DNA from: Patescibacteria group bacterium
GTDB lineage: Bacteria; Patescibacteriota; JABMPQ01; JBFLZX01
Direction of reading: 5' to 3'
DNA: 49,072 nt
Assembly: GCA_040756075.1 (NCBI GenBank)
Contig: JBFLZX010000002.1
Coordinates: 1 to 49,072, forward strand
Below are positions 1 to 42,968 of the stretch, one piece after another. The notes below the pieces were generated by a model. It had not been told where the DNA came from, made no database searches, and saw only the letters and a list, made by a program, of their open reading frames with translations. Position numbers and translations under genes: made by a program. How positions within the stretch are numbered: position 1 is the stretch's first letter; each line of letters opens with the position of its first letter.

Positions 1-165
1 AAAAAGAAATCTCAAAAGACGTTTCAATTGCATGACAATTTGCTAAAAAACAAAAACTCACGAATAGTGAGTCTTATTTGATTTGGTTTAAAAAAATGAC
101 AAAAAACAATTTCGTAATTCAAAGCTTTTAAGCTTGTGGATAAACACTTCATTTTTTGGCAAAAA

Positions 166-176
166 TGTGATATAAT
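166..176 (+). promoter_or_regulatory. candidate extended -10 promoter element
   Basis: TG at 168-169, one base, then a perfect TATAAT at 171-176. No convincing -35. Confidence 0.3.
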
Positions 177-416
177 AATAAAGACCAAAAACCAAATACC
201 AAAAATCAAAAACAAAAATCAAAAACTGACTCCGGTGCATCGGAGTCATCCCGAGCGAGGTCGCCGCGGTAACAGAATCGAGGAATCTCTCGCGAATGCG
301 AGTTCACAAACAAGTTGTGAGGTTCCTCACTTCGGCCAGCTGGGCTGGCTTTTGCTCAGAGCGACTTATTTTTTGTTTTTAGTCTGTAGTTTTGGTCTTT
401 GATTTTTAATTTTTTA
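177..416. repeat. composite palindromic intergenic element
   Basis: Left arm of CCAAAAA/ATCAAAAA-type units (about 181-228) mirrors a right arm of TTTTTG/TTTGGT units (about 369-416). The core holds small GC-rich hairpins (gactccg/cggagtc, ctcgc/gcgag, gtgagg/cctcac, gccagc/gctggc) and a GTCATCCCGAGCGA motif shared with other elements in the window. Confidence 0.6.
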
Positions 417-419
417 TTT

Positions 420-935
420 ATGGCTGCCGCATTTTCACAAATCAATTGGTCTGTTCCATCTTGGGATCTTTTTATTTATCTTTTTTTTGTCGTAGCGGTT
501 ATTTTGTACGGCATGGCGCTGGGAAGAGAACGAGTTTTATCTATTTTAATTAGTATTTATATTGGTTTGGCAATTTCGTCTAATTTGCCTTTTTTAAATG
601 AAAAAACAGCGGCAAAAATTGGTGTTTCTTCGGTATTTACTTTAAAACTTTTGGTTTTTGCCGCCGCGCTAGTGGTTGGTTTTTATGTTTTTTCTCGCGC
701 CGGGGCGCTCGCTTCTCTATCTTCAAGTTCAAAAATTATTCATATTTTTATTTTTTCTGTTTGTCAAGTTGGACTTTTGGTCAGCGTAATTTTATCTTTT
801 TTGCCGCAAACAGTGATAGATTCCTTTTTGCCTCTAACACGTCAATTATTTACTACAGAATTGGCAAGGTTTTTATGGATTTTGGCTCCGCTTGCGGCAA
901 TGTTTTTTGCTAAAAGAACAGGCGAAACAGCTTAA
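420..935 (+). CDS. hypothetical multi-pass membrane protein
   Basis: Long ORF with several hydrophobic helices (e.g. LFIYLFFVVAVILYGMALG, LLVFAAALVVGFYVF). The ATG at 420 is preferred over the TTG at 399, which lies inside the repeat arm. Confidence 0.6.
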   Translation: MAAAFSQINWSVPSWDLFIYLFFVVAVILYGMALGRERVLSILISIYIGLAISSNLPFLNEKTAAKIGVSSVFTLKLLVFAAALVVGFYVFSRAGALASLSSSSKIIHIFIFSVCQVGLLVSVILSFLPQTVIDSFLPLTRQLFTTELARFLWILAPLAAMFFAKRTGETA

Positions 936-1081
936 AAAGGGACAGTACCTTTGATTTGGGCATGAAATTTTGGCTTTTGTTGGTTAAAAATCTTACGGAT
1001 TTTAAAAATGGGATATTTTTGTCCAATTTTGTGCGGCTTAAATTTTTTTCTTGAAGGACTAATTTTTATGTGTTATATTAG

Positions 1082-1112
1082 GAAATAAGCAAGTAAAGCT
1101 TATTTCTTTTTG
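1082..1112 (+). terminator. rho-independent terminator-like hairpin
   Basis: Stem GAAATAAGC (1082-1090) pairs with GCTTATTTC (1098-1106), followed by TTTTTG. Confidence 0.55.
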
Positions 1113-1216
1113 TTGTTTGTCGAAAAAATCGAGATCGTCACGGCGACGCATAAATTTTTGTTAGAATTTTTGAATTTATCTGAAAATTGACAATTAATAG
1201 TTGAAAATTAAATCTC

Positions 1217-1336
1217 GGGGCGTTAGCTCAGTTGGGTCGATTGCGACCGATTAGGGAGCAATCGACGGGCAACAACATTAATGTAATTTAATAAGAAAGG
1301 TTGCCCAGGTAGAGCATCTGCCTTTTATGGCAAATG
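1217..1336 (+). pseudogene. tRNA-Lys-like 5' fragment with a ~73-nt insert in the D-loop and no T-arm
   Basis: GGGGCGTTAGCTCAGTTGG is identical to the intact tRNA-Lys 5' end. The insert (1236-1308) has two helices (GTCGATTGC/GCAATCGAC and GGGCAAC/GTTGCCC). The gene then resumes with GTAGAGCA plus a hairpin with a TTTTAT loop. No T-arm or 3' acceptor follows. Confidence 0.5.
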
Positions 1337-1363
1337 TGTTTTAAGATAGTATAAAAAATTTTT

Positions 1364-1436
1364 GGGGCGTTAGCTCAGTTGGTAGAGCACCTGCCTTTTA
1401 AGCAGGGTGTCACAGGTTCGAATCCTGTACGCCTCA
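1364..1436 (+). tRNA. tRNA-Lys (anticodon UUU)
   Basis: 73-nt cloverleaf read by eye: acceptor GGGGCGT/ACGCCTC, D-arm GCTC-AGTTGGTA-GAGC, anticodon arm CCTGC-CTTTTAA-GCAGG, T-arm ACAGG-TTCGAAT-CCTGT, discriminator A. Confidence 0.93.
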
Positions 1437-1451
1437 TTTTAGTAATATTGT

Positions 1452-1623
1452 GAGCGCAGCTCAGTTGGGTTTTTGCTGTAAATTGCGAAGCAATTTAGCG
1501 GCACAACTGCTTGTGCAGTGATAGCAAAAACGGGTTTGCCGATGCGCCGCAGGCGCAGGCAAACCTAGGAAGAGCACCTGCCTTTTAAGCTGAGGGTTTC
1601 GAGTTCGATCCTCGGGCGGCTCA
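1452..1623 (+). tRNA. tRNA-Lys(UUU)-like gene interrupted by a ~100-nt structured insert in the D-loop; possibly a pseudogene
   Basis: GAGCGCAGCTCAGTTGG is followed by an insert at 1469-1568 (helices GTTTTTGCT/AGCAAAAAC and GGGTTTGCC/GGCAAACC, with inner hairpins). The gene resumes with GAAGAGCACCTGCCTTTTAAGC, T-arm TCGAG-TTCGATC-CTCGG, and 3' end GCGGCTCA. The anticodon stem (CCTGC/GCTGA) and acceptor (one base short) pair imperfectly. Confidence 0.5.
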
Positions 1624-1669
1624 TTTTAAAAATCTTAAATCCCAAATCTTAAAACTCAAAATTTAGGAG

Positions 1670-1691
1670 TTGCCTTGCGGCAGCTTTTTTA
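1670..1691 (+). terminator. rho-independent terminator-like hairpin after the tRNA cluster
   Basis: GTTGCC-ttgc-GGCAGC followed by TTTTTT. Confidence 0.55.
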
Positions 1692-1742
1692 GTTGTTTTA
1701 TTTCAGAAAATCTTTTAGAATTTAAAGAGAACCAGAATTTTT

Positions 1743-2798
1743 ATGTCCCAGCGCATAATTTTCCACATTGATTTAGACGCTTTTTTCGCTTCCTGCGAAG
1801 TTTTGAAAAATTCAAAGCTAGCCGGAAAAGCTGTTGTTGTTGGCGCTGATCCAAAAGAAGGAAGGGGGAGAGGCGTTGTTTCAACTGCTTCTTATGAGGC
1901 GCGGAAATTTGGCGTTCATTCCGCTCAGCCGATATCAATAGCCTGGCGGCTTGCAGGCGGTCGGGTAATTTTTTTGTTGCCTGATTTTGCGTTTTATGAA
2001 AAAATGAGCGCTAAAGTGATGAAAATTCTGCAAAAATATGTTGATGCTTTTGAAAGTTGGGGAATCGACGAAGCCTATTTAGATGTTTCAGAAAAAATTC
2101 ACAATTTTAGAGAAGCAAAAGAATTCGCTCAAAAAATAAAAGAAGAAATTAAAGAAAAAACTAAATTAACCTGTTCGATTGGTATCGGACCAAATAAACT
2201 TTTAGCGAAAATTGCTTCAGGATATAAAAAGCCAGATGGACTGGTCTGTATTTTGCCGGATAAAGTTTTGGAATTTTTAAAACCTTTATCCTGTCGTGAG
2301 CTTATTGGCGTGGGTCCAAAAAGTGAGGAAAAATTGGCAAGGCTTGGTGTAAAAACAATCAGTGATTTGCAAAAAATATCACGAGAGAAACTAGTTGATA
2401 TTTTTGGCAAATTCGGCAGCAGCTTATATGATTATTCGCGGGGAATTGATGAAAGTGAAGTCAAGGAAAGCAAAGAGCGAAAGTCTATATCTTGCGAACA
2501 CACCTTTGAAAAAGACACTCAAAACCCTTATTTGATTTTTGCTACTTTAAACAAATTGGCTCAAGAAGTTTTTAAATTAATAAGAAAAGAAAAATATCAT
2601 TTTGGGCAAGTGGCGATTAAAGTGCGCTATGAAAATTTTGAAACTCATACTAGGCAATCGGTTTTATCAGAATCATCATCTAAATTTTATGATATAAAAA
2701 CAAAAGTGCGAGAGCTTATTTTGCCATTTTTAAAGAAAGGAAGAAGTATCAGACTAGTTGGTGTAAAAGTGGGGCGGCTGAGAGAATCTAAAAACTGA
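1743..2798 (+). CDS. dinB: DNA polymerase IV (Y-family translesion polymerase)
   Basis: The N-terminus IIFHIDLDAFFASCE, then GIDEAYLDV, IGIGPNKLLAKIAS and KPDG are typical DinB/UmuC-family motifs. 351 aa. Confidence 0.92.
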   Translation: MSQRIIFHIDLDAFFASCEVLKNSKLAGKAVVVGADPKEGRGRGVVSTASYEARKFGVHSAQPISIAWRLAGGRVIFLLPDFAFYEKMSAKVMKILQKYVDAFESWGIDEAYLDVSEKIHNFREAKEFAQKIKEEIKEKTKLTCSIGIGPNKLLAKIASGYKKPDGLVCILPDKVLEFLKPLSCRELIGVGPKSEEKLARLGVKTISDLQKISREKLVDIFGKFGSSLYDYSRGIDESEVKESKERKSISCEHTFEKDTQNPYLIFATLNKLAQEVFKLIRKEKYHFGQVAIKVRYENFETHTRQSVLSESSSKFYDIKTKVRELILPFLKKGRSIRLVGVKVGRLRESKN

Positions 2799-2841
2799 AA
2801 AGCAAATCTTCCTATTAGTAGAGTTTTTTTTAAACTTTTAT

Positions 2842-2879
2842 TATCGTCTATTTAGCGTGTACGCGCTAAATAGACGATA
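2842..2879. repeat. near-perfect 38-nt inverted repeat downstream of dinB
   Basis: tatcgtctatttagcg-tgtacg-cgctaaatagacgata. No U-tract follows. Confidence 0.6.
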
Positions 2880-2956
2880 TCAGAACTTGTAAGTAAGTCC
2901 GACAGAATCGGAATGAAAACTATAATCCATACTTTATAATTCACAATTCAAATACA

Positions 2957-4279
2957 ATGAAAGTTGCAATTAAAACATTGGGTTGCCGGCTAAATCAGGC
3001 AGAGTCACAGAATTTAATGGAAGAAATTGAATCTTGCGGCATTAATTTGGTTGATTTCAAGAATCAAGCCGATTTATATATTATAAATTCTTGTTCAGTG
3101 ACAAATTTAGCAGATTTTAAATCTCGGCAAGCAGTGCATTTCATTCGAAACAAACATCTAAAAGCAAAAATTTGGGCAACTGGATGTGCGAAAAGTTTAG
3201 TGCGCGAAGCAGATTTATTTTTTGAAGACAAAGAAGAGATTCCAAAAAAAATTCTTGAAGAAATTAATAATCAATTAAATTTTCAAACTAGAAGAGTGTT
3301 GTCATCTAAACACGATCGTAGTAAAATGACAACATTAAAAAGTGAATTAAAATGGGAAAATGAAAGTCTTTTTCGGACAAGGGCTTTTGTGAAAATTCAA
3401 GAAGGATGTGATAATTTCTGTGCTTATTGTATTGTGCCTTATTTGCGTGGGGAACCGAAGAGTATGCCAGCCTGCGAAATAATTAAGAAAATTAATCAGA
3501 AAGTTAATAAAGGATATAAAGAGGTGGTGTTAACAGGAGTGAATATCGGCAAGTACACTTCAAAAATTCCAAATTCCAAAATCCAAATTCCAAATAAATT
3601 CCAAATTCCAAATTCCAAAATCCAAAATATCAATTTATTTGGGTTGCTAAAATTAATACTTAAAAATACAAAAATTCCAAGAATTAGGCTGGGGTCGATA
3701 AATCCAGAAGATATTAATGGCGAATTTATAAATTTATTTCAAAATCTGCGGATGTGCCGGCATCTGCATTTGTCATTGCAGAGCGGGAGTAATAATGTTT
3801 TAGCAAGAATGGATAGAAAATATAATACAAAACGATATGAGAAAATTGTCCGGGAATTTTACCAAAAATACCCAGATTTCAATTTTACGACCGATGTCAT
3901 TGTTGGTTTTCCAGGCGAAACAGAAAAAGAATTTTTGCAAACTTATAATTTTATCAAAAAAATCGGCCTTTCTAAAGTTCATATTTTTCGTTATTCAAAA
4001 AGAAACAACACATACGCTGCAAGAATGAAAAATCAAATTGCAGAGAAGATAAAGTTAGGACGAGCAAAAAAACTAGAAATACTAAATAAAGTTTTAAAGA
4101 AAAATTTTATCAAAAAAATGCAAGGAAAATACGAAAGAGTTTTATTTGAGAATAAAAAACGCGGTTTTTGGCTGGGATTTACAAAGAATTATTTGAGAGT
4201 TAGAATGGAAAGTAGTAAAGACCTAAAAAATAAAATAATATCTATTAGGTTATCAAAGAATAATTTACTAGTCATATAG
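2957..4279 (+). CDS. mtaB: radical-SAM tRNA methylthiotransferase, MtaB-like
   Basis: N-terminal MKVAIKTLGCRLNQAES (UPF0004 domain), radical-SAM CDNFCAYCIVP, and a C-terminal TRAM-like segment. Carries an in-frame repeat insert (see 3561-3630). Confidence 0.85.
   Translation: MKVAIKTLGCRLNQAESQNLMEEIESCGINLVDFKNQADLYIINSCSVTNLADFKSRQAVHFIRNKHLKAKIWATGCAKSLVREADLFFEDKEEIPKKILEEINNQLNFQTRRVLSSKHDRSKMTTLKSELKWENESLFRTRAFVKIQEGCDNFCAYCIVPYLRGEPKSMPACEIIKKINQKVNKGYKEVVLTGVNIGKYTSKIPNSKIQIPNKFQIPNSKIQNINLFGLLKLILKNTKIPRIRLGSINPEDINGEFINLFQNLRMCRHLHLSLQSGSNNVLARMDRKYNTKRYEKIVREFYQKYPDFNFTTDVIVGFPGETEKEFLQTYNFIKKIGLSKVHIFRYSKRNNTYAARMKNQIAEKIKLGRAKKLEILNKVLKKNFIKKMQGKYERVLFENKKRGFWLGFTKNYLRVRMESSKDLKNKIISIRLSKNNLLVI
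3561..3630 (+). repeat. in-frame TTCCAAA/ATCCAAA tandem-repeat insert inside mtaB
   Basis: caaaaattccaaattccaaaatccaaattccaaataaattccaaattccaaattccaaaatccaaaat translates as SKIPNSKIQIPNKFQIPNSKIQN. It has the same unit as the intergenic AAATCCAAA elements. Confidence 0.85.
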
Positions 4280-4441
4280 CTTTTAAATCCAAATGCCAAA
4301 ATCCAAATTTCAAATCAGATCCAAAATCTAAATGACAAATTAACCCTCTTATATAAGTATAAGGGAGGAGGTGGAGGAGTTGTGTTTTAGATTTTAAACT
4401 TTGACATTCATTTGAAATTTGAGCTTTGGATTTTAGATTTT
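4280..4441. repeat. AAATCCAAA-family palindromic intergenic element
   Basis: The left arm (aaatccaaatgccaaaatccaaatttcaaatc...) mirrors the right arm (...gaaatttgagctttggattttagattt). The GC-rich centre is ccctcttatataagtataagggaggaggtggagg. Confidence 0.8.
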
Positions 4442-4442
4442 T

Positions 4443-4769
4443 ATGAGACTTCTTCCTCGTCGTCCGCGCTGTTCGTTTTGCAGTTGTCTTGCAATTTTGA
4501 TTTTAGCGGTTGTAATTTTCGGTAGTTATTTTTTTGCAAAAAAAGCAGATATAAAATGGCAGAAGATAATTAATTTATTAGGGCAAAAGGTTAAAATTAA
4601 AATTGAACAGAAAATGAAAGAAGAAATAAAAAAAGAAGGGAAAAAGTTGGAAGGAGAGGTTTATCGAGAGGCGACAGAACATAATCCAGAAGGGGATTTG
4701 TTGCCAGATCAGTTAGATAATAAAATAAAGCAGGATATAAAAGATGAGGTAAAAAAGAGAGTACAATAA
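4443..4769 (+). CDS. hypothetical membrane-anchored Lys/Glu-rich protein
   Basis: ORF with one N-terminal TM helix (LAILILAVVIFGSYFF) and a charged tail. No recognisable domain. Confidence 0.45.
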   Translation: MRLLPRRPRCSFCSCLAILILAVVIFGSYFFAKKADIKWQKIINLLGQKVKIKIEQKMKEEIKKEGKKLEGEVYREATEHNPEGDLLPDQLDNKIKQDIKDEVKKRVQ

Positions 4770-4772
4770 AAA

Positions 4773-4917
4773 ATGTATCTTGTATCTAGTATCTGGAATC
4801 TAGAATTGAATTTTGAATTATGAATTCCGAATTATATCCGTTTTTAGCGGATAAATATTCATAATTCTTCATTCACGATTCGATTCGAGATACGAGATAC
4901 CAGATTCGAAATTCAAC
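4773..4917. repeat. palindromic intergenic element (GTATCT/GAATT-unit family)
   Basis: gtatcttgtatctagtatctggaatctagaattgaatt... mirrors ...cgattcgagatacgagataccagattcgaaattc, with a central atccg-ttttta-gcggat hairpin. Related element at 43535-43738. Confidence 0.75.
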
Positions 4918-18049: not shown

Positions 18050-18056
18050 AATTATT

Positions 18057-18092
18057 GGTGACAGTCACTAATCGGTAACTGTCACCTTTTTT
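18057..18092 (+). terminator. rho-independent terminator
   Basis: GGTGACAGT (18057-18065) pairs with ACTGTCACC (18078-18086), followed by TTTTTT. Confidence 0.7.
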
Positions 18093-18201: not shown

Positions 18202-19536
18202 ATGGTTATAAAAAACTCAAAATTTGAATATAACAATTTTGATGCTATAGCATCAAAATTGTTAGCAGTAAAAAAAGTTGATTTTGGCCAAAAAATTAAA
18301 ATTTTCTCTGGGCGAGGTCGAAAAGTCATTGTCGCGATGTCTGGCGGAGTAGATAGTTCAGTAGCCGCAGTGGTTTTGAAAAGCCAAGGTTATGATGTCC
18401 GCGGTGTCTTTATGCATTTTTGGACGGAAAAGTCAAATGACGAGCTAGAATACCATGTTCAAAATCGTTGTTGCTCCATTGAGGCGCAAGAAATGGCGCG
18501 GAGAGTGGCCCAGAAACTTAATATTCCCTTTTACACTTTGAATTTTGAAAAAGAATTTAAAAAATATGTTGTGGATTATTTTATTTCTGAATATGAGGCG
18601 GACAGGACGCCAAATCCATGTGTGATGTGCAATAAGTGGATAAAGTTTGATTTTCTGTTGAGTAAAGTTAAGGCGCTCGGAGCTGATTATTTAGCAACCG
18701 GTCACTATGTTATAAAATCCGAAATTCGAAATCCGAAATCCGAAACAAATTCAAAATTACAAATTCGAAATTCAAAACAAAATGTCATCCCAAGCTCTTC
18801 GACTTCGCTCAGGACAGGCTTCGTCGAGGGATCTCATAGCCAAGAAATTATTTATAAATTATTTAAAGCAAAAGATAAAAACAAAGATCAATCATATTTT
18901 TTATATAATTTGACACAAAGACAACTTGAGCACATTTTATTTCCTATCGGCGATTATACAAAAATTCAGGTACGAGCAATGGCAAAAAAATGGGGTATTC
19001 CTTCTGCAGAAAGAAGAGAGTCACAGGAAATTTGTTTTATTTTAGAAAAAGATTACGGCGCTTTTTTGAAAAGATATATCAGAAATGTTAAACAAGGTAA
19101 AATTATAGATCAAAGCGGAAAGATTATCGGCCAGCACCAAGGTCTGCCTTTTTATACTATTGGTCAGCGGAAAAAAATTGGAGCATCTTTTGGACCTTAT
19201 TATGTTTTCGCCAAAGATATAAAGAAAAATATTTTATATGTAACCAACGACCCAAAAGATAAAAGATTGTTTTCTGGTAGTTTAATTGTTGAAAAAGTTA
19301 ATTGGATTTCCGGCGTTGCTCCAAAATTGCCATTTAATTGTGAAGTGAAAATTCGTTATAGGACCACATCTGAGCCAGCACAAATTGTTAAAAAAATAAA
19401 AAATAATTTTTTAATTAAACTTAAAAATCCTGTCCGTGCCGCAACACCGGGTCAGGCAGCGGTAATTTATAAAAAAGAAGAATTAGTGGGCGGAGGAATA
19501 ATTTTATCCACTTTTTACCCTCTTGATATTAAGTAA
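18202..19536 (+). CDS. mnmA: tRNA-specific 2-thiouridylase MnmA
   Basis: PP-loop VIVAMSGGVDSSVAA, then NPCVMCN, DYLATGHY, KDQSYFLY and a C-terminal beta-barrel region. The start is uncertain: ATG 18202 or in-frame TTG 18259, both near or inside the palindrome. Carries a ~130-nt in-frame repeat insert. Confidence 0.88.
   Translation: MVIKNSKFEYNNFDAIASKLLAVKKVDFGQKIKIFSGRGRKVIVAMSGGVDSSVAAVVLKSQGYDVRGVFMHFWTEKSNDELEYHVQNRCCSIEAQEMARRVAQKLNIPFYTLNFEKEFKKYVVDYFISEYEADRTPNPCVMCNKWIKFDFLLSKVKALGADYLATGHYVIKSEIRNPKSETNSKLQIRNSKQNVIPSSSTSLRTGFVEGSHSQEIIYKLFKAKDKNKDQSYFLYNLTQRQLEHILFPIGDYTKIQVRAMAKKWGIPSAERRESQEICFILEKDYGAFLKRYIRNVKQGKIIDQSGKIIGQHQGLPFYTIGQRKKIGASFGPYYVFAKDIKKNILYVTNDPKDKRLFSGSLIVEKVNWISGVAPKLPFNCEVKIRYRTTSEPAQIVKKIKNNFLIKLKNPVRAATPGQAAVIYKKEELVGGGIILSTFYPLDIK
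18231..18264. repeat. perfect 34-bp palindrome
   Basis: taacaattttgatgcta|tagcatcaaaattgtta, checked base by base. Both strands therefore encode NNFDAIASKLL. Confidence 0.9.
18714..18843 (+). repeat. in-frame composite repeat insert inside mnmA
   Basis: aaatccgaaattcgaaatccgaaatccgaaacaaattcaaaattacaaattcgaaattcaaaac is followed by gtcatcccaagctcttcgacttcgctcagg..cgtcgagggatctcatagc, a half copy of the GTCATTCCGAGCGA element. It translates as SEIRNPKSETNSKLQIRNSKQNVIPSSSTSLRTGFVEGSHSQ. Confidence 0.85.
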
Positions 19537-30392: not shown

Positions 30393-30488
30393 TTGGTTCA
30401 TGGTTCATAGTTGGTAGTTCATAGTTCATAGTTGGTGGTTTGTAGTTATTGAACTATGAACTAATAACCAATAACTAATAACTAAACA
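30393..30488. repeat. palindromic intergenic element (GTTCATA/TATGAAC and AACTAATA units)
   Basis: ggttcatggttcatagttggtagttcatagttcatagttgg... mirrors ...ttgaactatgaactaataaccaataactaataacta. Confidence 0.75.
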
Positions 30489-32757: not shown

Positions 32758-33108
32758 ATGCGGCATCGAAAAAAAGGAAAAAAATTAGGAAGAAAAAAAG
32801 ATCAAAGGCGATTGCTTTGTAAAAACTTAGCCGCAGATTTGATATTGAAAGAGAAAATTAAAACAACTGAAGCAAAAGCAAAATTTGCTCGTCCGTATCT
32901 TGAGAAACTGATTACTATTGCAAAAAAAAAGAATTTATTTGTAAAACAACGTTTGCATAGCTTATTGTCTAATAAAAAAGCAGAAAAAAAGCTGTTAACT
33001 GTCATTGCGCCGAAATATAAAGAAAGGAAAGGGGGTTATACGAGAATTTTAAAATTAAAAGAAAGGAAAGGAGATGGAGCGCAGATTGCGCTATTGGAAC
33101 TTGTGTAA
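32758..33108 (+). CDS. rplQ: ribosomal protein L17
   Basis: MRHRKKGKKLGRKKDQRRLL...GGYTRILKL..RKGDGA matches the L17 pattern. ATG 32758 is preferred over the upstream start in the repeat. Confidence 0.92.
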   Translation: MRHRKKGKKLGRKKDQRRLLCKNLAADLILKEKIKTTEAKAKFARPYLEKLITIAKKKNLFVKQRLHSLLSNKKAEKKLLTVIAPKYKERKGGYTRILKLKERKGDGAQIALLELV

Positions 33109-33260
33109 ATCGCTAATTTACACGAATTTTCTTGGCAACTTTTATTTTTGAAATAGATTCGTAGTAGATGCCTTAAACACTCCTATTCGTCGTGTTTAAC
33201 TTTAATTTCTGCGAATATTATTCGTGAATATTCGAGGTAAATTAGCGTAGATTAGCGATT
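33109..33260. repeat. palindromic intergenic element (GCTAAT/CGAATA units)
   Basis: atcgctaatttacacgaatttt... mirrors ...attcgaggtaaattagcgtagattagcgat. Confidence 0.65.
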
Positions 33261-33728
33261 ATGAAATTACATATCCCAAAAACCCACTTACCAAAGGCAA
33301 AAGAAATCAAACGCGCCTGGCATCTGCTGGATGCAAAAGACATTTCGTTGGGCAGGCTGGCAAGCAAGGCGGCCTTTTTGCTTATTGGAAAGCATAGGCG
33401 CGACTACACCTCACATCTTGATTTAGGTGATTTTGTTGTTGTTATAAATGCAAAAAAAATAAAAATTACGGGCAATAAATTAGAAGGCAAAATTTATCAT
33501 CGTTATACCGGATATCTTGGTCATCTTAAGAATATTAAATTACAGGAAAAATTTGAAAAAGATCCCCAATGGGTTATTAAGAAAGCAGTAAAAGGAATGA
33601 TTCCGGCAAATCGTCTGCGGCCGCAGCGACTTTGCAGATTAAAAGTATTCGTTGATGAAAAGCACCCCTATATTAATAAATTCCAAATTTCAAATCATAA
33701 ATCCCAAATAAATTCAAAATTCAAATGA
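33261..33728 (+). CDS. rplM: ribosomal protein L13 with a repeat-derived C-terminal tail
   Basis: WHLLDAKDISLGRLASKAAFLLIGKHR..YT...D.GD.VVVINA.KI..TG.K...K.YY.H.TGY.G matches the L13 pattern. The last ~17 aa (NKFQISNHKSQINSKFK) are translated repeat. Confidence 0.92.
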   Translation: MKLHIPKTHLPKAKEIKRAWHLLDAKDISLGRLASKAAFLLIGKHRRDYTSHLDLGDFVVVINAKKIKITGNKLEGKIYHRYTGYLGHLKNIKLQEKFEKDPQWVIKKAVKGMIPANRLRPQRLCRLKVFVDEKHPYINKFQISNHKSQINSKFK

Positions 33729-39139: not shown

Positions 39140-39240
39140 ATTATTTATTAATCAATTAACGAATTAACGTATTAACGAATTACAGTCAAGTTTCGTTTGA
39201 CTTTAATGCGTTAATTCGCAATTCGTTAATTGAATAATAG
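39140..39240. repeat. TTAACGAATT-family palindromic intergenic element
   Basis: caattaacgaattaacgtattaacgaatt-acagtcaagtttcgtttgacttt-aatgcgttaattcgcaattcgttaattg. Confidence 0.8.
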
Positions 39241-39248
39241 TTTAATTA

Positions 39249-40370
39249 ATGTTAATTGGCATCGATGCCTCGCGGGCAAATAGAGCCCTGAAGTCAGGAA
39301 CAGAGTGGTATTCTTATTATTTAATTTTAGAACTTGCAAAAATTGATCGGAAAAACCGATATTTTTTGTATACGCCGGAAAAACTTCGTGGTGAATTAAC
39401 AAATTTGCCAAAAAATTTTGAAGAAAAAATTTTATCCTGGCCGCCGAAGAAACTTTGGACAATGGCGCGGCTTTCTTTTGAAATGTTGATAGCCCCGCTG
39501 GATTTGCTTTTTGTTCCTGCTCATATTATTCCAATTATTTCGCCAAAAAATACCCTGACAGCAATTCATGATCTTGGTTTTTTGCGCTATCCTCAGTTTT
39601 ATTCAAAAAAAGAATTAAAATACCATCGCTTTGGACTGCGGCAGGCAATAAAAAAAGCGATAAAAATTATCACTATCTCGGAATTTTCAAAAAAAGAATT
39701 AATCGAATTATGCTGTATGCCTTCGGAAAAAATTGAAGTAATTTATTTAGGTTTTTCGCCAAAATATAAACAGATTCTTGATCGACAAAAGACCGAGACT
39801 ATTTTAGAAAAATATCATATTCCTAAAAATATTCCTTATATCTTATATATCGGCAGGCTGGAATACAAAAAAAATACGCCGCGTTTGATTTCTGCTTTTG
39901 CTAAATTTAAAAAATTAAATCCAGAGCTACGGCATAAATTAGTTTTGGTTGGAAGTTTTGGCGTGGGCAAAGAAGAAGTTTTTAAAAACATTAAAAAATA
40001 CAATCTTGAAAAAGAAGTTATAATGCCAGGCTGGATTATTGAGGATGATCTTTCTTATATTCTATCAGGCGCTTCTCTATTTGTTTTTCCATCTTTATAT
40101 GAAGGATTTGGCATTCCGATTTTAGAAGCAATGGCCGCTTGTGTTCCGGTTTGCGCGGCGGCGCGGGCTTCGATTCCAGAAGTAGCAGGTAGAGCCGCTT
40201 TATTTTTTGATCCGGAAAATGAAGAAGAAATGGCTAAATCTATTGAAAAAATATTAAAAAACCTAAATCTGCAAAAGGAATTGAAAGAGAAAGGCAAAAA
40301 AAGAGCTTCGGCCTTTTCGTGGGAAAAATGCGCGAGAAGGACACTGAAGGTTTTGGAAAGTTGCAGATGA
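39249..40370 (+). CDS. GT-B fold glycosyltransferase (family 4/GT1-type)
   Basis: C-terminal Glycos_transf_1 signature: ASLFVFPSLYEGFGIPILEAMAACVPV....ASIPEVAG.AALFFDP. Confidence 0.85.
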   Translation: MLIGIDASRANRALKSGTEWYSYYLILELAKIDRKNRYFLYTPEKLRGELTNLPKNFEEKILSWPPKKLWTMARLSFEMLIAPLDLLFVPAHIIPIISPKNTLTAIHDLGFLRYPQFYSKKELKYHRFGLRQAIKKAIKIITISEFSKKELIELCCMPSEKIEVIYLGFSPKYKQILDRQKTETILEKYHIPKNIPYILYIGRLEYKKNTPRLISAFAKFKKLNPELRHKLVLVGSFGVGKEEVFKNIKKYNLEKEVIMPGWIIEDDLSYILSGASLFVFPSLYEGFGIPILEAMAACVPVCAAARASIPEVAGRAALFFDPENEEEMAKSIEKILKNLNLQKELKEKGKKRASAFSWEKCARRTLKVLESCR

Positions 40371-42890: not shown

Positions 42891-42968
42891 TTGCGAAACT
42901 TGTAACGTATAACATATAACTCAAGAAGTAAAACTTGCGTTACAAGTTATATGTTACAAGTTACACGA
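42891..42968 (+). repeat. TTACAAG-family hairpin element, copy 5 (upstream of frr)
   Basis: ttgcgaaacttgtaacgtataacatataactcaagaagtaaaacttgcgttacaagttatatgttacaagttacacga. Confidence 0.8.

Follow-up and report, generated by a model that had tools for sequence, protein, structure and literature searches.

A candidate structured RNA element on a tRNA-Lys D-arm upstream of the tRNA-Lys gene of a Patescibacteria bacterium

An intact tRNA-Lys gene between two split copies

The DNA analysed here (hereafter, the window) is a stretch of 49,072 nucleotides (nt) of contig JBFLZX010000002.1 from a Patescibacteria group bacterium (assembly GCA_040756075.1), and our subject is a short region near its start (1217–1623) in which a tRNA-Lys gene lies between two tRNA-Lys-like copies, the upstream one carrying what we suggest is a conserved structured RNA element (1217–1316). 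The window is AT-rich (G+C content of 35%), and the labels on named neighbours of its membrane protein (171 amino acids; 420–935) and of its ribosomal protein L13 place the host in the Patescibacteria (that is, the candidate phyla radiation, CPR), near Microgenomates. The three-part arrangement, first recognized from the letters alone in the original prediction, was confirmed by ARAGORN, Rfam, BLAST and predicted folds. The middle gene is a functional tRNA-Lys(UUU) that scores above the Rfam family threshold and is the sole tRNA recognizable in the window by ARAGORN and Rfam; at the gathering score Rfam returned nothing beyond it, and ARAGORN found no transfer-messenger RNA (tmRNA) in the window. 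Each flanking copy is broken directly after D-loop G19, upstream by an insert of 74 nt (1236–1309) and downstream by one of 101 nt (1469–1569).

Both inserts are highly structured on a two-helix plan, as the original prediction had it: two adjacent hairpins are predicted in each (H1 and H2 upstream, H1′ and H2′ downstream), with fold z-scores of −8.5 (upstream) and −5.5 (downstream) against shuffled sequences, none of the 200 shuffles folding as well. The inserts also have boundary letters in common, starting with GT after GTTGG, passing from AC to GGG at the border between the two hairpins, and ending in CC(C/T)AGG before (T/A)AGAGCA. The argument that a shared position and architecture speak against random decay holds. 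The upstream copy does possess the exact 5′ end of the tRNA; homology restarts at 1308–1327 (tRNA positions 18–37; 19 of 20 identical) and continues into an anticodon-like hairpin (TGCC/GGCA with a 6-nt loop), and the T-arm is missing (Table 1).

Table 1. Features of the tRNA-Lys locus and the module-like sequence elsewhere in the window
Feature	Position	Strand	Basis or comparison
Upstream tRNA-like 5′ segment: acceptor 5′ strand GGGGCGT, TA, D-stem 5′ strand GCTC, D-loop AGTTGG to G19	1217–1235	+	19/19 identical to tRNA; 18/19 L001 versus window; 15/19 L007 versus window
H1: 9-bp stem GTCGATTGC/GCAATCGAC, symmetric GA/GA internal loop (GCGACC...GGGAGC), two C-G pairs, apical loop of 3–5 nt	1236–1266	+
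H2: 7-bp stem GGGCAAC/GTTGCCC, 26-nt A/U-rich loop partly kept (CATTA..TAATTT..GAAA)	1267–1306	+
Junction AGGTA, D-stem 3′ strand GAGC and A26; closes the predicted three-way junction	1307–1316	+	D-stem closure by RNAalifold
Lineage-specific spacer; 1317–1327 homologous to tRNA positions 27–37, with anticodon-like hairpin; remainder A/T-rich	1317–1363	+
Functional tRNA-Lys(UUU)	1364–1436	+	ARAGORN; Rfam RF00005, 75 bits
Downstream tRNA-like 5′ part: GAGCGCA, GCTC, AGTTGG	1452–1468	+	acceptor strand mismatched or bulged versus 1616–1622
Downstream insert: H1′ 1469–1531 (outer stem GTTTTTGCT/AGCAAAAAC with inner hairpins), H2′ 1532–1565, then TAGG	1469–1569	+
Downstream tRNA-like 3′ part: D-stem 3′ strand, anticodon arm (2 mismatches), CTTTTAA loop, canonical T-arm, 3′ acceptor strand, A73	1570–1623	+
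Terminator-like hairpin with T-run, end of the tRNA-Lys transcription unit	1665–1688	+	terminator scan; kept in L001 at 3079–3104
Diverged sequence resembling H1–H2, rplQ–rplM spacer; kinship to the upstream module uncertain	33127–33202	−	model R2, 27.1 bits

The upstream element in three lineages

Using the flanking genes as anchors (that is, those for the membrane protein and for DinB, 1743–2798), we compared the locus with related contigs, denoted here by L numbers. A Logan contig (L001; membrane protein 95% identical, DinB 73–74%) carries the membrane-protein gene, the element, tRNA-Lys and DinB in this order, without the downstream copy, and three mutually identical contigs from ENA and JGI (L007, L008 and L009; membrane protein about 70% identical) have, behind the membrane-protein gene, first a promoter-like site and a decayed partial unit and then the element, with tRNA-Lys last. 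In both of these Microgenomates lineages the element sits between the same membrane-protein gene and tRNA-Lys, that is, at an orthologous site. Its identity to the window is 85/102 (83%) in L001 and 77/105 (73%) in L007, much as for the real tRNA (57/74 between window and L007), and the intergenic DNA upstream of it aligns poorly between the window and these relatives. Identity at fourfold-degenerate sites between the window and L001 is 0.54 in the membrane-protein gene and 0.42 in dinB, values near saturation, and between the window and L007 it is 0.33, a value that is saturated for base composition. We suggest that the upstream element is under purifying selection, as a pseudogene so old would be randomized. 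The divergence of the element follows that of the hosts, L001 being nearer than L007, which fits vertical descent at one locus.

What lies 3′ of the D-stem differs from lineage to lineage: tRNA homology extends to position 37 in the window, 27 in L007 and 24 in L001, and the spacer before the real tRNA is unconserved in L001 and measures a mere 7 nt in L007, in which the element thus ends 7 nt before tRNA +1. The lack of a T-arm that the original prediction had noted recurs in L001 and L007, and a 3′ acceptor strand is absent from the element in all three. The more distant relatives L010 and L011–13 have a plain tRNA-Lys behind the membrane-protein gene and no element, and all further relatives reached through DinB (L003, L004 and L020–22) or the membrane protein (L005, L006, L010 and L011–13) either lack it or have contigs that stop before the locus. 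A pattern scan of JGI metagenomes returned only the JGI contig already known and two matches that we read as chance (one in a GC-rich JGI contig, the other in a non-coding stretch without paired flanks), one of GTDB species representatives returned three matches, all chance, and two of viral contigs returned none, the gap range of the second pattern being too short for the downstream copy; neither insert matched a phage collection. As the pattern scans yielded no further copy, the element is known from three lineages only.

The unconstrained RNAalifold consensus of the three sequences is a three-way junction of 22 pairs, made of the 4-bp D-stem, H1 (9 + 2 bp) and H2 (7 bp). Five of these pairs have changed on both sides, three show one-sided changes to G.U and none is broken; the double changes comprise three in H1 (relative to L007) and two in H2, where a G.U change is also found (in L001 and L007), and the D-stem GCTC/GAGC becomes GTTC/GAGT in L001, which gives two wobble pairs. 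All 66 pair cells are paired, against 24–45% when the structures are slid by 1–3 columns, and column shuffles matched the observed values for pairing, double changes and covariation in only 3 of 500 cases, a control that is not to be read as a probability. The search for compensatory changes in the insert helices that the original prediction proposed has thus found them upstream; the downstream copy has no orthologue in L001 or L007. Conservation is highest in the junction strands AGYTGG and AGGWA, in the first pairs of both H1 and H2, at the top of H1 and in parts of the H2 loop, and the apical GCGACC...GGGAGC of H1 is invariant in the three species. Given that the G.U pairs of L001 would be A.C on the minus strand, the RNA strand is that of the tRNA.

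Such hairpins might instead act in DNA, as inverted-repeat sites for protein binding or recombination beside the tRNA gene, given that H1 and H2 are inverted repeats, that palindromic operators also yield compensatory changes and that the rplQ–rplM spacer with its module-like sequence (see below) folds about equally well on both strands. However, three pairs of L001 are kept as G.T (A.C on the opposite strand), which is tolerated in RNA and breaks the symmetry of a duplex palindrome, the invariant portion is the asymmetric apical loop of H1 rather than the arms, and the loop of H2, with its 26 nt, exceeds what is typical of an operator; we regard this reading as very unlikely.

With respect to transcription, the terminator scan gave no terminator-like site in the stretch that separates the element from the tRNA in the window (plus strand of 1317–1363), L001 or L007, and the 5′ leader of the tRNA-Lys transcript is therefore the best place to put the element. 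Upstream of the element, L007 has a sigma-70-like promoter (684–712; TTGAAA-17-TAAAAT with TG, that is, an extended −10; 10/12). Orthologous conservation beyond the neutral rate and compensatory changes on one strand, the generic marks of a noncoding RNA (ncRNA) or cis-acting leader, are thus both found across three independent sequences. On balance, we lean towards reading 1217–1316 as a conserved structured RNA element on a tRNA-Lys D-arm, most likely a leader or a leader-derived small RNA. Among the alternatives offered by the original prediction, it is accordingly the tRNA-derived structured ncRNA that gains for the upstream copy, from orthologous conservation, compensatory changes and saturated neutral sites.

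Four further ideas about how the element might work or what it resembles were rejected. Pairing of its acceptor-like 5′ strand with the tRNA 3′ strand would be perfect in the window and L001 and reach only 5/7 in L007, and so is not conserved; an AAA in the H2 loop that resembles a specifier, or base pairs between this loop and the anticodon loop of tRNA-Lys, cannot be distinguished from A/U-richness; a terminator/antiterminator switch using the D-stem 3′ strand has weak candidates (hairpin plus U-run) in the window and L001 and none in L007, none of which passed the terminator scan; and a likeness to the tmRNA 5′ end was dismissed, as ARAGORN found no tmRNA. Further upstream, a conserved promoter-like sequence (TTGAAG-17-TGnTATATT) abuts a conserved hairpin with a T-run (AGGAAATAAG...CTTATTTCT) at 1051–1108 of the window, 2677–2736 of L001 and about 2400–2460 of L010. 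Given that a transcript starting at this promoter-like site would be without the 5′ half of the terminator hairpin, transcription reading through from the membrane-protein gene might be stopped there while tRNA transcripts begin.

Introns, pseudogenes and insertable modules

A processed insert or intron had also been proposed. In its general form, a new small intervening sequence at D-loop position 19/20 would be cut out by an endonuclease or ribozyme together with a ligase, or be excised without religation as in fragmented rRNA, and this would account for the identical position in both copies (where the variable part of the D-loop begins), for the exact restoration of AGTTGGTAGAGCA when 1236–1309 is deleted and for the junction nucleotides conserved between two otherwise dissimilar inserts. 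After removal of 1469–1569, moreover, ARAGORN calls the downstream copy a tRNA-Lys(ttt), albeit only at thresholds lowered to 90%; at default thresholds no tRNA emerged from 150 boundary combinations of in-silico excision, and the 3′ region of this copy scores 18.6 bits with the Rfam tRNA model, against a gathering score of 29. The upstream copy has no Rfam tRNA match at E ≤ 10 and, once 1236–1309 is removed, is never called by ARAGORN, even with thresholds at 60%, and its unconserved sequence 3′ of the D-stem and the absence of a T-arm and 3′ acceptor strand in all three species rule out an intron in a functional tRNA. Further arguments against an intron are the defective acceptor and anticodon stems of the downstream copy, which lacks an orthologue, and the intact tRNA-Lys alongside, in the presence of which nothing selects for splicing. 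For the upstream copy the proposal is not supported, and for the locus as a whole we consider it very unlikely.

The known classes of intervening sequence fit no better. In each insert the two ends belong to different hairpins, whose outer strands they form at a three-way junction (checked by eye on the folds), so that there is neither a bulge-helix-bulge, in which a 4-bp helix of exon and intron ends separates two 3-nt bulges, nor one long terminal stem, and the joined exons make no functional tRNA (no T-arm or acceptor upstream, a sub-threshold pseudo-tRNA downstream); a bulge-helix-bulge intron was rejected on both grounds, and an rRNA-type intervening sequence excised by RNase III on the first, as its ends would belong to a single extended stem. 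Group I introns in bacterial tRNAs have a P1–P9 core of about 200 nt or more and lie in the anticodon loop. With 74 and 101 nt the inserts are too short for group I or group II introns, as the original prediction had argued; their D-loop position further tells against group I, and their end sequences are unfit for group II (5′ GUGYG and 3′ AY expected). Rfam found no intron, ribozyme or riboswitch family at E ≤ 10 in 1–3000, and its weak matches there and in 33050–33300 were taken as chance. Self-cleaving ribozymes (hammerhead, twister, pistol, hatchet and those resembling that of hepatitis delta virus) were dismissed on this search with family covariance models, and the junction strands AGYTGG and AGGWA are unlike the hammerhead core.

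The downstream copy (1452–1623), which has AGCTCAGTTGG in common with the tRNA, carries an insert of the same junction plan, the H2′ stem GGGTTTGCC/GGCAAACC enclosing TGCGCC/GGCGCA, and is detected by neither of our covariance models (R1 and R2, the latter built on H1 and H2 alone, run without filters and with rough E-values). Its imperfect stems are as originally described: the anticodon stem CCTGC/GCTGA has two mismatches and the acceptor stem pairs only with a bulge. Over 20 nt (1571–1590) it matches the tRNA, and the flanking T-arm and acceptor differ from the middle gene, the T-arm (CGAG/TTCGATC/CTCG) resembling that of the L007-type tRNA-Lys instead. The tract identical to the middle gene created the two anticodon-stem mismatches, and it looks as if the copy was partly overwritten by gene conversion from that gene. 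We take it to descend from a second, old tRNA-Lys gene or from a copy that was acquired; it is probably nonfunctional as a tRNA and looks like a decaying pseudo-tRNA-Lys of this lineage only, with a divergent insert. The third original alternative, dead tRNA duplicates hit by hairpin elements, is therefore the best reading of the downstream copy and the likely origin of the upstream one, and does not describe the present state of the latter.

A bolder view would make of the two-hairpin three-way-junction module a new class of small RNA domain specific to position 19/20 of Microgenomates tRNA-Lys D-loops, either a bacterial D-loop intron with an undescribed mode of removal (for example, cleavage by a ribozyme or endonuclease and RtcB-type ligation) or a permanent expansion of a tRNA scaffold that serves some purpose other than translation, of which the upstream and downstream copies would be members at different stages. 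We hold this to be improbable.

The main rival to a leader RNA is a selfish or repeat-like two-hairpin module, akin to miniature inverted-repeat transposable elements (MITEs) or repetitive extragenic palindromic (REP) sequences, or acting through single-stranded hairpins, that entered the D-loops of dead, redundant tRNA-Lys copies and whose structure is kept for its own propagation or by concerted evolution, without host function. The use of an identical D-loop site with identical terminal nucleotides by both inserts would fit this view, as would the diverged module-like sequence in the unrelated spacer between rplQ and rplM. The score of that sequence stands against 17 bits for the next best R2 match in the window and 15.5 bits for the best in 50 kb of related loci. 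It combines an H1-like top (GAC..GGA) with an H2-like stem within a longer AT-rich palindrome, and the orthologous spacer of L023 (L13 73% identical) is 94 nt long and has no module-like sequence. However, BLAST of both inserts against the window found no further copy, and this one very diverged R2 candidate is all that a test for a MITE- or REP-like family yielded within about 49 kb of genome, which gives no sign of an active, homogeneous family. The tracking of host divergence by the element, the conservation of D-arm nucleotides that lie outside the module and the lack of a transposase, integrase or HUH-type gene among the 39 window open reading frames (ORFs) scanned against Pfam likewise weigh against a selfish unit. 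We consider this rival unlikely, although the module may have started out as an insertable unit or may be one still. A scan for adjacent hairpin pairs proved far too permissive in AT-rich DNA and was abandoned.

General unrest at and around the locus also fits a selfish module. In L007 the decayed partial unit (720–784) lies directly 5′ of the full element and consists of an H2-like hairpin (GGCAG...CTGCC) followed by AGGAAGAGCAGTGTCAT, which shows tandem duplication of the unit. In L002 (DinB 72% identical) a different cassette has invaded the tRNA-Lys locus, with duplication of the tRNA 5′ part here too: at 4150–4550, a 26-nt tRNA 5′ fragment (GGGCCCGTAGCTCAGGCGGTAGAGCA) is followed by a palindrome and by a small GIY-YIG ORF (4229–4513) that begins about 33 nt past the fragment, and the same 26 nt recur as the 5′ end of tRNA-Lys, into which the ORF runs to stop at the anticodon-loop TAA. 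Given that the substituted 5′ strand mismatches the 3′ acceptor strand ACGCCCC, this tRNA-Lys may be impaired. In the window, a GC-rich structured block (226–366; z = −2.7; no Rfam match) upstream of the membrane-protein gene lies between long AT-rich arms of short repeats (about 180–225 and 367–419), and the equivalent L001 spacer of about 148 nt is without it. The genome is rich in intergenic hairpin structures, that is, long imperfect inverted repeats of short tandem motifs (for example, 4777–4905, 9664–9779, 30393–30485, 39140–39250 and 42897–42965), which are the hairpin elements named in the original prediction.

A hairpin (GGTGACAGT...ACTGTCACC) at 18054–18089, upstream of mnmA (18202–19536), resembles H1 in its loop, 11 of 13 positions agreeing between the minus-strand letters (TACCGATTAGTGA) and those of the H1 loop (GACCGATTAGGGA); at 17 bits it is near background and may be a coincidence. 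MnmA thiolates U34 of tRNA-Lys(UUU). The Pfam-scanned ORFs are of the kinds ordinarily found on a chromosome (ribosomal proteins, RpoA, AlaRS and another class II aminoacyl-tRNA synthetase, MreB, MreC, MnmA, a MiaB/MtaB-like enzyme, type IV secretion parts and an AbiEii toxin pair), with no Pfam match to EndA, RtcB or a reverse transcriptase, the first two of which would have suited an intron. The MiaB/MtaB-like radical-SAM methylthiotransferase (2957–4279) lies two genes past tRNA-Lys, and the DUF6922/AbiEii (type IV toxin–antitoxin) pair at 12751–13718. Past a few close CPR relatives, the named matches of DinB (about 50% identity) are mostly archaeal (Bathyarchaeia, Aenigmarchaeota and Nanoarchaeia), which suggests interdomain transfer.

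A possible leader RNA and its relation to known systems

Returning to the leader RNA that we favour, we propose the following course of events. A partial tandem duplicate of tRNA-Lys would most likely have gained the two-hairpin module at D-loop position 19/20, after which all sequence 3′ of the D-stem decayed while selection retained the three-way junction, with the tRNA D-stem closing it, AGYTGG and AGGWA as junction strands, the GA/GA top of H1 and the A/U-rich loop of H2. The element would be co-transcribed with tRNA-Lys, and cleavage by RNase P at tRNA +1 would set its 3′ end and free a leader RNA of about 100 nt. This RNA could then work as a protein- or RNA-binding leader or as a small RNA, for which the invariant top of H1 would be the likely recognition site, and occasional gene conversion with the neighbouring tRNA may keep the tRNA-like flanks similar.

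Several observations weigh against this interpretation. The covariation statistics are thin, because L007, L008 and L009 are identical and leave three independent sequences. The element is missing from L006 (membrane protein 78% identical; from the same sample as L002 and assumed to be the same organism), which the membrane protein places nearer than L007, and is therefore dispensable or replaceable. The position in the leader is inferred from promoter and terminator consensus scans, and the promoter scan gave no convincing site directly upstream of the element in the window or L001. No neighbour among the 39 scanned ORFs points to a partner, the 9-nt acceptor-like 5′ tail lacks a conserved partner to pair with, so that only upkeep by gene conversion would explain its retention, and the module-like copy between rplQ and rplM, missing in a relative, hints that the module may be mobile or selfish instead of serving the host.

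Among known systems, the closest parallel to the proposed model is the 3′ETS-leuZ sponge RNA of Escherichia coli, a small RNA from a tRNA precursor spacer: in both, a non-tRNA segment would be co-transcribed with a tRNA, freed by tRNA-processing enzymes and given a function of its own, although the present element lies 5′ of the tRNA, is built from a tRNA fragment (acceptor strand and complete D-arm), is predicted to form a three-way junction and has a presumed processing. The tRNA-like domains of tmRNA and of the bacterial Y-RNA-like YrlA imitate the acceptor/T-arm half, the elbow or the entire L-shape, and likewise reuse part of the tRNA fold as a scaffold inside a larger structured RNA; the element, in contrast, retains only the 5′ strand and D-arm, with no tmRNA call by ARAGORN and no Rfam match. 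REP sequences, bacterial interspersed mosaic elements and MITEs are also short structured intergenic inserts with variable presence among relatives, and a second diverged copy may exist here too, yet there is no homogeneous multi-copy family in 49 kb, no terminal inverted repeat and no target-site duplication past an ambiguous GG, and one locus has been long retained with compensatory evolution. The insertion sequences reportedly studied in CPR, in a paper with no occurrence of 'tRNA' counted in its text, belong to rRNA genes of the same radiation, in which stable-RNA genes are said to be interrupted more often than in other bacteria, whereas the present inserts lie in tRNA-like sequences and are far shorter than group I or II introns. 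Finally, bulge-helix-bulge tRNA introns at non-canonical positions, the D-arm included, are known from archaea and algae (reviewed in PMC4090602 and PMC3978253). These resemble our case in the D-loop region interrupted and in a structured insert of about 70–100 nt, and differ in that our host is bacterial, with no bulge-helix-bulge at the boundaries, no splicing endonuclease among the scanned window ORFs and upstream exons that cannot form a tRNA. We found no description of D-loop inserts in bacterial or CPR tRNA genes in the literature.

The practical value of the element is modest, given that it comes from three lineages only and offers no functional handle. The comparison marks the tRNA-Lys locus of this clade as a hotspot of rearrangement: L007 has partial tandem units, L002 a GIY-YIG cassette together with a duplicated tRNA 5′ part, and the window a pseudo-tRNA that carries a second insert. 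It also adds a candidate ncRNA motif for the CPR/Patescibacteria, a group with little-known RNA biology that stands out already by its interrupted rRNA genes. If our reading is correct, a fragment of a bacterial tRNA gene would here have been turned into a different structured RNA that selection maintains, of which few cases are documented, and the D-stem of a tRNA would have become the closing helix of a new three-way junction.

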